From: Escherichia coli
GTDB lineage: Bacteria; Pseudomonadota; Gammaproteobacteria; Enterobacterales; Enterobacteriaceae
DNA: 3,120 nt
Direction: 5' to 3' (one strand)
NCBI RefSeq assembly: GCF_003334815.1
Contig: NZ_QOWO01000085.1
Part shown: piece after piece, positions 1-3,096 of the stretch
Layout of the letters: each line of letters begins with the position of its first letter
How positions within the stretch are numbered: the first letter of the stretch is position 1
Notes under the pieces: model-generated
The model's database searches: none
What the model saw: the letters and a program-made list of their open reading frames with translations, nothing else
Told to the model about the DNA's origin: nothing
Program-made: the position numbers and the translations under genes

Positions 1-31
1 CGCGGTGAACAGCCCACAGGCAGCGGGGAAC

Positions 32-63
32 GGGCACCACAGGGGTGCCCTCCCGGTGCCCTC
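32..63 (+). promoter_or_regulatory. Repeat cluster upstream of the methylase gene: hairpin GGGCACC-acagg-GGTGCCC (32-50) whose right arm is repeated directly (GGTGCCCTC at 44-52 and 55-63, 11 bp apart); candidate operator or structured 5' leader
   Basis: Seen directly: 7-bp perfect inverted repeat with 5-nt loop, plus an exact 9-bp direct repeat at one helical turn spacing, about 20 bp upstream of the methylase SD. No convincing sigma70 -35/-10 is visible inside the window, so the promoter may lie upstream of position 1. Confidence 0.3.
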
Positions 64-71
64 TGTAAGAG

Positions 72-77
72 AAGGAG
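72..77 (+). promoter_or_regulatory. Shine-Dalgarno (AAGGAG) for the methyltransferase gene
   Basis: AAGGAG lies 6 nt upstream of ATG at 84. Confidence 0.6.
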
Positions 78-83
78 TTTCGT

Positions 84-767
84 ATGTCCCGTTTTGTCCT
101 CGGTAACTGCATCGATGTTATGGCCCGTATTCCTGATAACGCCATTGATTTCATCCTCACCGACCCGCCATATCTCGTCGGTTTCCGTGACCGTTCCGGG
201 CGCACCATCGCCGGCGATAAAACCGATGAGTGGCTGCAACCGGCCTGTAATGAAATGTTCCGCGTGCTGAAAAAAGACGCGTTAATGGTGAGCTTCTACG
301 GCTGGAACCGCGTCGATCGCTTTATGGCCGCCTGGAAAAATGCGGGATTCAGCGTTGTTGGTCACCTGGTCTTCACCAAAAACTACACATCGAAGGCCGC
401 ATATGTGGGCTATCGCCACGAATGCGCCTACATCCTGGCAAAAGGCCGTCCACGTCTGCCACAAAACCCGCTGCCGGACGTGCTGGGCTGGAAATATTCG
501 GGCAATCGCCATCACCCGACGGAAAAGCCCGTTACCAGCCTGCAACCGCTGATTGAGAACTTCACACACCCGAACGCAATTGTGCTGGACCCGTTTGCAG
601 GCAGCGGCTCAACCTGCGTCGCCGCCCTCCAGTCCGGACGCCGGTATATCGGTATCGAGCTGCTTGAGCAGTATCACCGTGCCGGGCAGCAACGCCTTGC
701 CGCCGTGCAACGGGCCATGCAGCAGGGGGCCGCGAATGATGACTGGTTTATGCCGGAGGCTGCGTAA
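84..767 (+). CDS. Orphan site-specific DNA N6-adenine methyltransferase, beta class (N6_N4_Mtase-type, YhdJ-like), 227 aa
   Basis: Strong SD and ATG start. Catalytic motif IV DPPY (nt 162-173) lies N-terminal to the SAM-binding motif I FAGSGST (nt 594-614), the circularly permuted order typical of beta-class amino-MTases. The C-terminal segment HPTEKP...VLDPFAGSGST...GRRYIGIE matches the conserved core of YhdJ-like and plasmid orphan adenine methylases as I recall them. No restriction endonuclease partner is present in the window. Confidence 0.9.
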   Translation: MSRFVLGNCIDVMARIPDNAIDFILTDPPYLVGFRDRSGRTIAGDKTDEWLQPACNEMFRVLKKDALMVSFYGWNRVDRFMAAWKNAGFSVVGHLVFTKNYTSKAAYVGYRHECAYILAKGRPRLPQNPLPDVLGWKYSGNRHHPTEKPVTSLQPLIENFTHPNAIVLDPFAGSGSTCVAALQSGRRYIGIELLEQYHRAGQQRLAAVQRAMQQGAANDDWFMPEAA

Positions 768-989
768 ATGAACTATGCAGGACACGAAAAACTGCGCGCC
801 GAAGTGGCGGAGGTGGCCAATGCCATGTGCGACCTGCGTACAACCATGAATGAGATGGAGCAGCGGTACAGCTTTAATGCCGACACCCTGCCGGAACGTC
901 TGGTGCGTCAGACGCTGTTTCGCGCAAACCGCCTCCTGATGGAGGCATATACCGAAATTCTGGAACTGGAAGCGTGCTTTAAAGATTGA
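768..989 (+). CDS. Hypothetical small protein, 73 aa, translationally coupled to the methyltransferase; function unknown
   Basis: Its ATG immediately follows the methylase TAA stop (TAAATG at 765-770), with GGAGG 9 nt upstream. The protein is predicted helical and mildly acidic, with no motif I recognise. It is followed 13 bp later by the next gene, which has its own SD. Confidence 0.65.
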   Translation: MNYAGHEKLRAEVAEVANAMCDLRTTMNEMEQRYSFNADTLPERLVRQTLFRANRLLMEAYTEILELEACFKD

Positions 990-1002
990 GAAGGAGACGA
1001 GA

Positions 1003-1437
1003 ATGTACGGAACATGCGAAACGCTATGCCGGGAGCTGGCAGTAAAGTATCCGGGAGACATGCCGCTGATGCTGGTTATCTGGTCCCCGGAAGAGATTCA
1101 GGCCCTCGCTGACGGAATGGATATTTCCCTGTCCGATCATGAAATCAGAACCGTCCTGGCGCGCCTGGAGGACATCCCGGAAGACCAGCGGACTGAATCC
1201 GGTATTTCTTCCGGCGTGGCGATGGAGATCATCAATAACGTGAGCGAAAACCGCCAGGTGACCGTCCCTGCTGAACTGCTGGCGTCCCTGATTCAGACCG
1301 CTGAACAGGCATTGTGGAAACGTGAATGGGCCGCCCGGGATCATGGCCTCGCCGTCCCGGAATGCGTCACCCGCCGTCAGGCGGTGATTAATCAGGCCCG
1401 CACCCTGCTGAAAAACAACAGACACGAAAACGACTGA
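1003..1437 (+). CDS. Hypothetical acidic protein, 144 aa; function unknown
   Basis: AAGGAG at 991-996 lies 6 nt before ATG 1003. It is the longest ORF in this span; the antisense ORF 1024-1425 has no RBS. By manual count it has about 23 Asp/Glu against about 14 Arg/Lys. No recognisable catalytic motif. Confidence 0.7.
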   Translation: MYGTCETLCRELAVKYPGDMPLMLVIWSPEEIQALADGMDISLSDHEIRTVLARLEDIPEDQRTESGISSGVAMEIINNVSENRQVTVPAELLASLIQTAEQALWKREWAARDHGLAVPECVTRRQAVINQARTLLKNNRHEND

Positions 1438-1482: not shown

Positions 1483-2259
1483 ATGAACGAAAACACAACA
1501 CTGAACGCACTGATTTGTCGTCACGCCCGCAACCTGCTGCTGGCGCAGGGCTGGCCGGAAGAGACGGATGTTGACCAGCGGAACCCGAAGTATCCGGGCT
1601 GGATCAGCATTTATGTTCTGCTGGATGCGCCCCGGCTGGCGATGTTACTCATCAACCGTCACGGCGGCGTACTGCCGCCGCTCCTGGCCTCCGCCATTCA
1701 GAAACTGACCGGAACCGGGGCGGAACTGGTACTGTCTGGCAGTCAGTGGCAGTCGCTGCCGGTACTTCCGGCAGACGGAACACAGGTGTTTTTCCCGTAT
1801 GCCGGAGAATGGCTGACCGAAGACGAAATCAGGGCAGTTCTTGATGCAGTGCGCGATGCGGTACGCAGTGTCAGTTGCCGGGTGGCAGAAGATGCGCAGC
1901 GTATCAGGGCGGCGCTGACCACAACCGGTCAGACGTTGCTGACCCGCCAGACGCGCCGCTTTCGCCTGGTTGTGAAGGAAAGCGATCACCCCTGCTGGCT
2001 CGATGAAGACGACGAAAACCTGCCCGTGGTGCTCGATGCCATCCTGAACCGGGGAGCACGTTTTTCGGCGGTGGAAATGTATCTGGTCAGTGAGTGTGTG
2101 GAGCATATCCTGTCCAGTGGGCTGGCCTGCGATGTGCTGCGTATACCGGATGAACCGCCCCGCCGGTGGTTTGACCGTGGTGTTCTGCGGGAGGTGGTCC
2201 GGGAAGCCCGGGCCGAAATCCGCAGCATGGCGGATGCCCTGGCAAAAATCAGGAGCTGA
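1483..2259 (+). CDS. Hypothetical protein, 258 aa, with an acidic patch (WLDEDDEN); function unknown
   Basis: GGGAGA SD lies 10 nt upstream of ATG 1483. It is a long ORF in the same orientation as the operon, followed immediately by an intrinsic terminator. I see no nuclease, ATPase or HTH motif by eye. The antisense ORFs 1645-2355 and 1986-2312 are low-complexity and lack RBSs. Confidence 0.7.
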
Positions 2260-2263
2260 TGAT

Positions 2264-2287
2264 GGCGGGGAAAATCCCCGCCTTTTT
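2264..2287 (+). terminator. Rho-independent terminator of the methylase-ORF2-ORF3-ORF4 operon
   Basis: GGCGGGG-aaaat-CCCCGCC (7-bp GC-rich stem, 5-nt loop) followed by TTTTT, beginning 5 nt after the ORF4 TGA stop. Confidence 0.75.
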
Positions 2288-2341
2288 CCTGCCGGTCCCG
2301 GACAGAGCACAAAGGACGTCGCCGCCGGCTCCGCTTTACCC

Positions 2342-2370
2342 GGCCATGCGGGCATGGCCTTATGGGTTTT
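2342..2370 (+). terminator. Second hairpin (GGCCATG-cggg-CATGGCC) followed by an interrupted T-tract (TTATGGGTTTT); possible backup terminator or the 3' end of a short transcript
   Basis: Perfect 7-bp inverted repeat seen directly. The downstream T-run is interrupted, so this is weaker than the terminator at 2264-2287. Confidence 0.35.
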
Positions 2371-2657
2371 CAGTTATGTGGCCTCAGCGCCGTGTGCGGG
2401 CTGTGCCGTGCCTCCATCTTAGCCGGGCTGGCGTTGATGCAAGGGTACGCTTCGCCGCTGCGGTCACCCGGTCCCTCCTTCCCGTCTGCCGTGATTTTCC
2501 GGTCGTTCGCCCGCTCAGGTTTCGCGGCCTCACCCTGCAACTCCCGCCAGCCGTGTGCGTCAGGCTGCGGCTTCCCTTGCGCCCCTGCATCCCCGCCTGT
2601 TCGCCCGGCTTTTATGGAGGCACGGCACCGCCCGGTGTCGCGGAATATGTGAACAAC

Positions 2658-2662
2658 GGAGG
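2658..2662 (+). promoter_or_regulatory. Shine-Dalgarno (GGAGG) for klcA
   Basis: GGAGG lies 8 nt upstream of ATG 2671. Confidence 0.6.
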
Positions 2663-2670
2663 AAAACATC

Positions 2671-3096
2671 ATGCAATATGCGAAACCTGTCACTCTGAAC
2701 GTTGAAGAGTGCGACCGTCTCTCCTTTCTACCGTATCTGTTTGGCAACGATTTTCTGTATGCCGAGGCGTATGTGTACGCGCTGGCGCAAAAAATGATGC
2801 CGGAATATCAGGGAGGCTTCTGGCATTTCATCCGCCTGCCGGATGGTGGCGGTTACATGATGCCGGATGGCGACCGTTTTCATCTGGTCAACGGTGAAAA
2901 CTGGTTTGACCGCACTGTGAGTGCTGATGCCGCAGGTATCATCCTGACTTCCCTTGTGATTAACCGCCAGTTGTGGCTGTACCACGACAGCGGGGATGCG
3001 GGACTGACACACCTTTACCGGATGCGCGATGCGCAGTTGTGGAGCCACATCGAATTTCACCCCGAATGCAACGCGATTTACGCGGCACTGGACTGA
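2671..3096 (+). CDS. klcA: Anti-restriction protein, KlcA/ArdB family, 141 aa
   Basis: Good SD and ATG. The protein carries the pattern I associate with KlcA/ArdB anti-restriction proteins: [11 protein letters not shown] ... EAYVYA ... [19 protein letters not shown] ... [10 protein letters not shown] ... [12 protein letters not shown] at the C-terminus. Its size (141 aa) also fits. This is recall of the family, not a database hit. Confidence 0.88.

Follow-up and report, generated by a model that had tools for sequence, protein, structure and literature searches.

A DUF1380 protein encoded in a plasmid leading region between an ssDNA methylase and KlcA/ArdB: a candidate factor in early plasmid establishment

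Genes and features of the window

The window described here (the whole stretch of DNA that was analysed, 3,120 nucleotides in length) is the leading region of IncK/I/F plasmids. Its genes, each read from the + strand, follow the order methylase, YubE, ORF3, ORF4, terminator, a non-coding stretch of 380 nucleotides and KlcA/ArdB, and the same order is repeated in F, pESBL, pMS7163B and an IncK2/Z plasmid. ORF1 (84..767), the first gene of the operon, is assigned as an M.EcoGIX-type single-strand-specific adenine DNA methyltransferase, on the basis of its match to NCBIfam NF010253 (E 4.4e-150), its collinearity with the M.EcoGIX gene of pESBL and the function reported for that enzyme. ORF2 (768..989) encodes YubE (PF27407), a helical hairpin of 73 amino acids. 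Its start overlaps the stop codon of ORF1 (TAAATG, 765-770), and an abutting or overlapping junction of this type is also present in eight further loci (L005, L010, L011, L012, L014, L015, L016 and L017), which suggests that the methylase and YubE are translationally coupled.

ORF3 (1003..1437, stop included), the gene of interest in this study, lies in the leading region between the anti-restriction ssDNA methylase and KlcA/ArdB, and is identified from the list of open reading frames and from matches to PF07128 and phrog_9024 as a DUF1380 gene of the YubF/YfcB/YcgB type, with a product of 144 amino acids. The frame runs on the + strand from an ATG at 1003 to a TGA at 1435-1437, and inspection of the sequence places a Shine-Dalgarno element (AAGGAG, 991..996, + strand) 6 nucleotides 5' of the start codon. 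Five nucleotides 3' of the ORF3 stop codon, and 5' of ORF4, lies a perfect 9-bp inverted repeat with a 4-nucleotide loop (ATCGCCGCC / GGCGGCGAT, 1442-1463), which is not followed by a run of T residues and thus does not qualify as a classical terminator; a function in mRNA stability or in differential expression within the operon is possible.

The last gene of the operon, ORF4 (1483..2259), encodes a YchA/YubG-like protein of 258 amino acids that has no match in Pfam, NCBIfam or PADLOC, and is the variable member of the set: several related loci lack it, or have a truncated form or another gene in its place (it is absent or replaced in L010, L013, L014 and L016). Its family was counted as the tenth largest of plasmid leading regions (Samuel et al. 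2024, PMC11541004). Directly behind ORF4 is an intrinsic terminator-like hairpin (2264..2290, + strand), made up of an 8-bp GC stem and a TTTTT tract. It is the sole terminator-like site in the window, and ORF1 to ORF4 are therefore taken to form one transcription unit that ends there. ORF5 (2671..3096), the KlcA/ArdB antirestriction gene, is recognized by Pfam PF03230 (E 2.4e-26) and by the annotation of matching records.

Expression from single-stranded DNA

No sigma-70-like promoter was detected anywhere in the 3.1-kb window, and its transferred strand folds into two strong hairpins. The first, a very long one formed by the GC-rich stretch between the operon and klcA (2291..2670, - strand), corresponds by its DNA fold and by the literature to ssp2 of F and pESBL, a class-2 ssDNA promoter of klcA/ardB that also acts as a replication roadblock; the transferred (-) strand of 2255-2675 folds with a free energy of -112 kcal/mol (z -5.4). 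This segment is nearly identical to the F-plasmid sequence, and in two distant loci only its 3' part is conserved. Several open reading frames of 68-148 amino acids are called within 2291-2670 and are probably spurious. The second hairpin, 5' of the methylase (window 1-83 and L001:11780-12085), reaches -88.9 kcal/mol on the transferred strand (z -6.5), and is consistent with the class-3 ssDNA promoter of M.EcoGIX. A RefSeq ‘hypothetical protein’ of 103 amino acids (net charge +18, pI 11.7) spans this hairpin, and is unlikely to be a real gene.

Both in pESBL and in F, the M.EcoGIX and klcA operons have been demonstrated to be induced in transconjugants from ssDNA promoters of new classes (Wen et al. 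2025, PMC12672017). The hairpin that precedes the ArdB homologue was subsequently established as both a promoter and a replication roadblock, and experiments with rifampicin indicated that neither the conversion of the incoming strand nor the stall at ssp2 needs plasmid-encoded proteins (Fraikin et al. 2026). The published induction of the M.EcoGIX operon from its ssDNA promoter implies that ORF3, by virtue of its place in that operon, would be expressed in the recipient while the plasmid is still single-stranded; its own induction is inferred from this position.

The DUF1380 family and its distribution

ORF3 is a true gene rather than a chance reading frame, as indicated by its DUF1380 match, by 513 homologues in the protein database, by a dN/dS of about 0.30 against the F-plasmid copy (values against distant homologues were saturated and unusable) and by its presence in at least 5000 plasmid records. 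Residues 1-136 align with positions 1-137 of the 137-position PF07128 model (E 2.8e-52), which also matches 21 of the 24 aligned relatives, and the protein falls in phrog_9024 (E 6.7e-71), a PHROGs family to which no function has been assigned. Searches of NCBIfam and PADLOC with ORF3 returned no match. A profile search of 1.84 billion representatives recovered only 277 DUF1380 clusters, which points to a small, narrow family.

Orthologues of ORF3 have been given many names, including YubF (F plasmid), YfcB (R64), YcgB, Hp10 (pESBL, where it is collinear with ORF3) and pMS7163B_00940. ORF3 is an ordinary member of this YubF/YfcB/YcgB subgroup, being equal in length to the others, 91-93% identical to them (93% to pMS7163B_00940) and placed in the same leading-region slot, behind the methylase and YubE. 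At 90-99.5% identity, the window as a whole is matched by at least 5000 plasmid records, most of which are conjugative plasmids from Escherichia, Klebsiella, Salmonella and Shigella. The 3.1-kb segment occurs in 71% of complete E. coli genomes (3835 of 5426), with 7304 of its 7391 places lying on plasmids. A tblastn search of 50,697 phage records revealed no copy of ORF3.

RefSeq often begins YubF-type genes 40 codons too far upstream. The F-plasmid orthologue (L002:6966-7520) is annotated with 184 amino acids and that of pMS7163B (L020:16909-17427) with 172, both starts overlapping YubE. From the MYGT start, which is conserved and has a strong ribosome-binding site, and from the length of 144 amino acids in most clusters, these two starts are judged to lie too far 5'. 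Several longer ‘fusion’ homologues (P0121, P0128, P0139, P0079 and P0005) were considered as Rosetta-stone clues and were set aside as uninformative, being chimeras with neighbouring plasmid genes that were created by deletion or read-through. In P0121, P0128, P0139 and P0079 the DUF1380 sequence is in frame with ORF4, with FinO-like sequence or with unrelated sequence, which suggests recurrent deletions that end inside the gene.

Conserved pairing with anti-restriction genes

For eleven divergent homologues, with 22-46% identity to ORF3, the surrounding genes were compared with those of the window and of F. An order of N6_N4 methylase, YubE and DUF1380 was found in all 12 loci in which both upstream genes are visible (the window and F counted), down to 28-46% identity, and in L008 and L018 YubE is present behind an upstream gene that is cut off. 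The same arrangement, transcribed from the T-strand (family 7 of Samuel et al., strand = 1), characterizes the YubF/YfcB subgroup in the window, F, pESBL and pMS7163B, and in diverse metagenomic and genomic loci. The gene 3' of the YubF-type copies varies, and may be an ORF4-like gene, a gene of 89 amino acids, KlcA or ArdA.

Directly 3' of KlcA, the IncK2/Z plasmid, F, pESBL and pMS7163B carry another DUF1380 gene, with 27-32% identity to ORF3, and copies of this YubJ type lie directly behind KlcA/ArdB wherever the upstream gene is visible. These YubJ/YcgC-type paralogues (pMS7163B_00910 and Hp12 of pESBL) share with ORF3 the Pfam family, the length, an acidic N-terminal domain, the RQVTVPA motif and expression from the leading region; they differ in their low identity, in their place after KlcA/ArdB, in a stronger charge (net -16, pI 4.45) and in having a published conjugation phenotype that depends on donor modification. 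The two patterns of synteny tie each DUF1380 subgroup to one known anti-restriction function of the region.

Predicted structure and remote similarity

An AF2 model of ORF3, built from an alignment of 24 sequences, is all-alpha with seven helices (pLDDT 87.4, pTM 0.59). Five of these (residues 5-15, 29-38, 45-56, 60-66 and 70-82) make up a predicted N-terminal domain (amino acids 1-83; 1003..1251, + strand), and two amphipathic helices (amino acids 90-113 and 120-142; 1270..1428, + strand) form a C-terminal hairpin that is a probable oligomerisation or partner-binding element. The two parts are joined by a linker that carries the most conserved motif seen in the alignments, R-Q-V-T-V-P-A (amino acids 84-90; 1252..1272, + strand); invariant across the DUF1380 alignment are R84, within this R-x-V-T-V-P-A motif, and L93, just after it. 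The high rmsd values of the DUF1380 models matched in AFDB50 suggest that the two domains are connected by a flexible hinge.

The preliminary description of this locus had named a confident match to an unrelated enzyme fold as an observation that would speak against its proposal of a DNA mimic, and no such match was found: a Foldseek search of the PDB with the ORF3 model gave nothing (best E 0.97), and the search of AFDB50 gave only DUF1380 proteins, nearly all from Enterobacterales, with no relative outside the family. Searches by sequence and profile against solved structures yielded only insignificant hits (a calmodulin-like helix-loop, E about 0.15, and one designed protein). The modelled fold is thus not enzyme-like, and it resembles no solved DNA mimic. 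When the DUF1380 family profile was compared by hhalign with ArdA of the same plasmid and with Ocr, the probabilities were 0.2% and 0.1%, respectively; no relationship with KlcA was detected by the same method, and a Pfam search of ORF3 returned no ArdA (PF07275) or ArdB/KlcA (PF03230) match.

Residues 40-99 (window 1120-1299) display weak, insignificant similarities to the inter-helix region of EF-hand/calmodulin proteins and to PP-binding domains, both of which are small acidic helical folds. An identity as an acyl-carrier-like PP-binding protein (PF00550) was rejected: the E value is 0.028 in ORF3 and at best 6.7e-3, in only three of the 24 family members, and the domain's conserved serine is missing, with S, D, C, T, G or N occupying the position two residues after the conserved G67.

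Acidity and its distribution along the protein

The preliminary description had counted about 23 acidic and about 14 basic residues in the 144 amino acids of ORF3, and these counts are exact: the protein contains 8 D and 15 E against 3 K and 11 R, with 3 H, giving a net charge of -9, a D+E content of 16.0% and a computed pI of 4.80. That acidity was set against the 37 annotated proteins of the best-matching plasmid and T7 Ocr. ORF3 carries a net charge of -0.062 per residue and ranks fifth among the 37, close to KlcA (-0.064) and PsiB (-0.056), and lies below the YubJ-type DUF1380 paralogue (-0.114), ArdA of the same plasmid (-0.151) and T7 Ocr (-0.239) in strength of charge, being 2.4-fold weaker than ArdA and 3.9-fold weaker than Ocr. 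The overall acidity of ORF3 is consequently real but ordinary, moderate acidity being common in this neighbourhood, and composition alone cannot separate ORF3 from KlcA or PsiB.

The likeness to both of these proteins extends to their size and setting. ArdB/KlcA proteins (PF03230) are about 140 amino acids long, with a pI of about 4.8-4.9 and a net charge of -9, and are expressed early from the leading region, but they share no sequence or profile similarity with ORF3 and have a mixed alpha/beta fold of their own, whereas ORF3 is predicted to be all-alpha. PsiB, with 144 amino acids, a net charge of -8 and zygotic induction, likewise belongs to an unrelated family and fold and to a different operon. 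It is the SOS inhibitor of the leading region, and acts by binding the host protein RecA rather than by catalysis. ArdA (PF07275) and T7 Ocr, like ORF3, are small acidic early proteins of an incoming mobile element; Ocr (T7 gp0.3) carries 34 acidic and 6 basic residues per monomer as compared to 23 and 14, an extreme acidity that ORF3 does not share. A search of the literature found no quantitative published criterion for DNA mimics.

The charge of ORF3 is unevenly distributed. Residues 1-83 have a net charge of -11 (-0.13 per residue, with 19% D+E and 6% K+R), and residues 84-144 a net charge of +2, such that the charge density, which for the whole protein only equals that of KlcA, is ArdA-like within the N-terminal 83 amino acids. 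Windows of 83 amino acids that are as acidic as this domain make up 2.8% of those in other proteins of the same plasmid. The split is kept in 24 family members down to 22% identity, in which the N-terminal domain averages -10.2 (range -5 to -13) and the C-terminal part -1.0. The acidic character of the DUF1380 N-terminal domain is thus conserved while single acidic positions drift, and the only conserved acidic columns are E47 and D113.

Published observations on the orthologue, the paralogue and their neighbours

A survey of leading regions has already counted DUF1380 as their seventh largest family, with 3957 members, a median position of 19th gene from oriT, T-strand orientation and the label ‘Uncharacterized’, and has found no DIAMOND or Foldseek hit of the family to anti-CRISPR or anti-restriction sets; the DUF1380 paralogue is family 14 of the same study (Samuel et al. 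2024, PMC11541004). No functional study was found in the literature under the gene names yubF, ycgB or yfcB. Two transposon screens bear on the orthologue. In a TnSeq analysis of pESBL, Hp10 was non-essential for maintenance and for transfer from K-12 to K-12 (PMC4288162). In a TraDIS analysis of pMS7163B, a library built in TOP10 (hsdRMS-minus) was mated into J53 (EcoKI+); insertions in 00940, the 93% identical orthologue, were depleted 3-fold (log2FC -1.67, FDR 1.8e-73), a value that falls short of the authors' cut-off of -2, while the corresponding log2FC values were -3.41 for ardB, -3.09 for ardA, -2.35 for the DUF1380 paralogue 00910 and +0.64 for M.EcoGIX (PMC10286972). The depletion of 00940 may be affected by polar effects, or by overexpression from the transposon promoter.

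The same investigators demonstrated that ardB::Cm and 910::Cm mutants are defective in conjugation from TOP10 donors and not from MG1655 donors, and attributed the effect of ardB to EcoKI restriction while leaving that of 910 without explanation (PMC10286972); the 910 phenotype is uncomplemented, and belongs to a paralogue only 27-32% identical to ORF3. They further observed that a Cm cassette in place of YubE (950) caused overexpression of 940 and 930 and abolished conjugation, which was restored upon removal of the cassette, that forced overexpression of 940/930 in cis made the plasmid carrier lose in competition, and that expression of 930/940 in trans had no effect on growth (PMC10286972). 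The absence of an effect in trans indicates that the consequence of overexpression depends on the plasmid, and the phenotype is a joint one that is not attributed to 940 over 930. Overall, the pMS7163B data on 940 and 910 are suggestive rather than clean, with polar and promoter effects both possible.

Published work on the neighbours adds two further points. M.EcoGIX is active in vivo when cloned alone, but the enzyme expressed alone loses activity upon purification and seems to need an intermediary partner. KlcA was found experimentally not to be a DNA mimic, and shows by its precedent that an acidic protein may counter restriction through an indirect action.

Interpretation

An anti-restriction or establishment role for ORF3 is plausible. 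The preliminary description had proposed a small acidic early protein that helps a mobile element past restriction by mimicking DNA. The first part of that proposal gains from the leading-region context, the zygotically induced operon, the TraDIS values of 00940 and 00910 and the 910::Cm mutant; the mimicry itself finds no backing from similarity to Ocr, ArdA or any solved structure in sequence, profile or fold. The reading that we prefer, tentatively and with appreciable doubt, is that ORF3 is a non-enzymatic, zygotically expressed establishment factor that aids restriction evasion through protein binding by its acidic N-terminal domain, with the C-terminal hairpin serving self-association or the binding of a partner. 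This reading draws on our own analyses for the reality of the gene, its family, operon position, synteny, charge partition and orphan helical fold, and on the literature for zygotic induction and the transposon phenotypes.

In such a scheme, the operon would be read from the hairpin (ssDNA) promoter on the incoming single strand; ORF3 would appear in the recipient within minutes of plasmid entry, and its expression would be silenced once the plasmid has become double-stranded. The acidic N-terminal domain (net -11 over 83 amino acids) would contact a host protein of restriction, defence or DNA processing at a basic surface that probably binds nucleic acid (both this mode of binding and the identity of the target are inferred), and the amphipathic C-terminal hairpin would mediate self-association or contact with a partner.

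The alternative that best survives, which we consider unlikely, is that ORF3 serves the ssDNA methyltransferase module as an accessory or adaptor subunit, and together with YubE targets, stabilises or restrains M.EcoGIX, either at the replisome or on the incoming strand while this is coated by SSB. Such a role would suit the methylase-YubE-DUF1380 triad, which is invariant in the 12 loci with both upstream genes while the downstream neighbour varies, as well as the TAAATG coupling of the methylase with YubE and the instability of M.EcoGIX purified alone; it fits poorly with a DUF1380 paralogue that is coupled to KlcA/ArdB instead of a methylase, with the in vivo activity of M.EcoGIX cloned alone and with TraDIS values that are neutral for M.EcoGIX and depleted for 00940. 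A fusion of the YubE-(G4S)5-ORF3 type, modelled by AF2 with 12 natural YubE/DUF1380 pairs, displayed no confident joint arrangement (pTM 0.34, pLDDT 75.8); this is a weak test, as a monomer model from a shallow paired alignment, evaluated without PAE and covering YubE rather than the methylase.

Less probable again is a true structural DNA mimic, in which carboxylate arrays on an ORF3 dimer would imitate the phosphate backbone and fill the DNA groove of a type I restriction-modification enzyme or other DNA-binding defence protein. The charge density of the N-terminal domain (-0.13 per residue, near the -0.151 of ArdA), the conservation of negative charge while its positions drift, a helical fold (as in Ocr), early expression beside anti-restriction genes and the EcoKI-dependent phenotype of the paralogue are all properties that a mimic might display. 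They are opposed by a whole-protein charge that is 2.4- to 3.9-fold below those of ArdA and Ocr and equal to that of the non-mimic KlcA, by the neutral to basic character of the C-terminal 61 residues (84-144), by the lack of profile or fold similarity to Ocr, ArdA or solved mimics (hhalign at most 0.2%; none in the Foldseek sets of Samuel et al., PMC11541004), and by the fact that conservation is greatest in a specific R-x-V-T-V-P-A motif rather than in a diffuse pattern of charge. We do not regard ORF3 as a protein that, like Ocr and ArdA, mimics dsDNA with its whole body; a partial mimic is possible, given the ArdA-like charge density of its N-terminal domain.

Least probable is an action of ORF3 upon plasmid DNA processing (single- to double-strand conversion, early replication or transfer) rather than upon host defence, which would explain its confinement to the zygotic burst and accords with the plasmid-dependent loss of conjugation upon overexpression of 940/930 in cis and with the control of conversion timing by the adjoining ssp2 hairpin, but is countered by the rifampicin experiments, in which conversion and the ssp2 stall proceed without plasmid-encoded proteins, by the dispensability of Hp10 for pESBL transfer between K-12 strains and by an overexpression phenotype that is unassigned between 940 and 930.

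A further proposal, which we put forward as a long shot, is that DUF1380 proteins form a new, orphan-fold anti-restriction class paired with the two known anti-restriction genes of the leading region, the YubF type as companion of M.EcoGIX and the YubJ type as that of ArdB/KlcA, in which the acidic N-terminal domain is a partial nucleic-acid mimic. Were it true, such pairing could help to explain the behaviour of ArdB and M.EcoGIX, which are active in vivo and whose activity is lost or lacking in vitro.

Relation to earlier descriptions, and significance

The gene and its family are already catalogued as an uncharacterised leading-region anti-defence candidate, and the idea drawn from composition is reasonable and not new. 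Three observations may be useful in this context: (i) the pairings of DUF1380 with the methylase and YubE on the one hand and with KlcA on the other, which were not found stated in the leading-region literature; (ii) the conserved charge polarity of DUF1380, likewise not found stated there; and (iii) the recognition that pMS7163B 910, with its ardB-like phenotype, is a DUF1380 protein, a link not made in the original study (PMC10286972). A gene of the ORF3 type is carried by most IncF, IncI and IncK resistance plasmids, and the period of its expression would coincide with the few minutes that decide the establishment of a plasmid in a new host. If DUF1380 proteins are indeed restriction-evasion factors, alone or with ArdB and M.EcoGIX, they would fill a gap in our understanding of how resistance plasmids cross strain barriers, and would offer a testable clue to the indirect action of ArdB, which has no explanation so far.

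Other acidic proteins of the same plasmid

Two additional acidic proteins are of note. A DUF1281 protein of 300 amino acids, encoded upstream of the methylase operon (L001:10798-11700), contains an 83-residue segment with a net charge of -17, which ranks second in acidity among the segments of the 37 proteins sampled. Between ardA and oriT, just upstream of an Rpn nuclease gene, lies a gene for a hypothetical protein of 129 amino acids (L003:4477-4866) with a net charge of -19, a D+E content of 24% and a pI of 4.23, which by composition alone is a much better candidate for a DNA mimic than ORF3.
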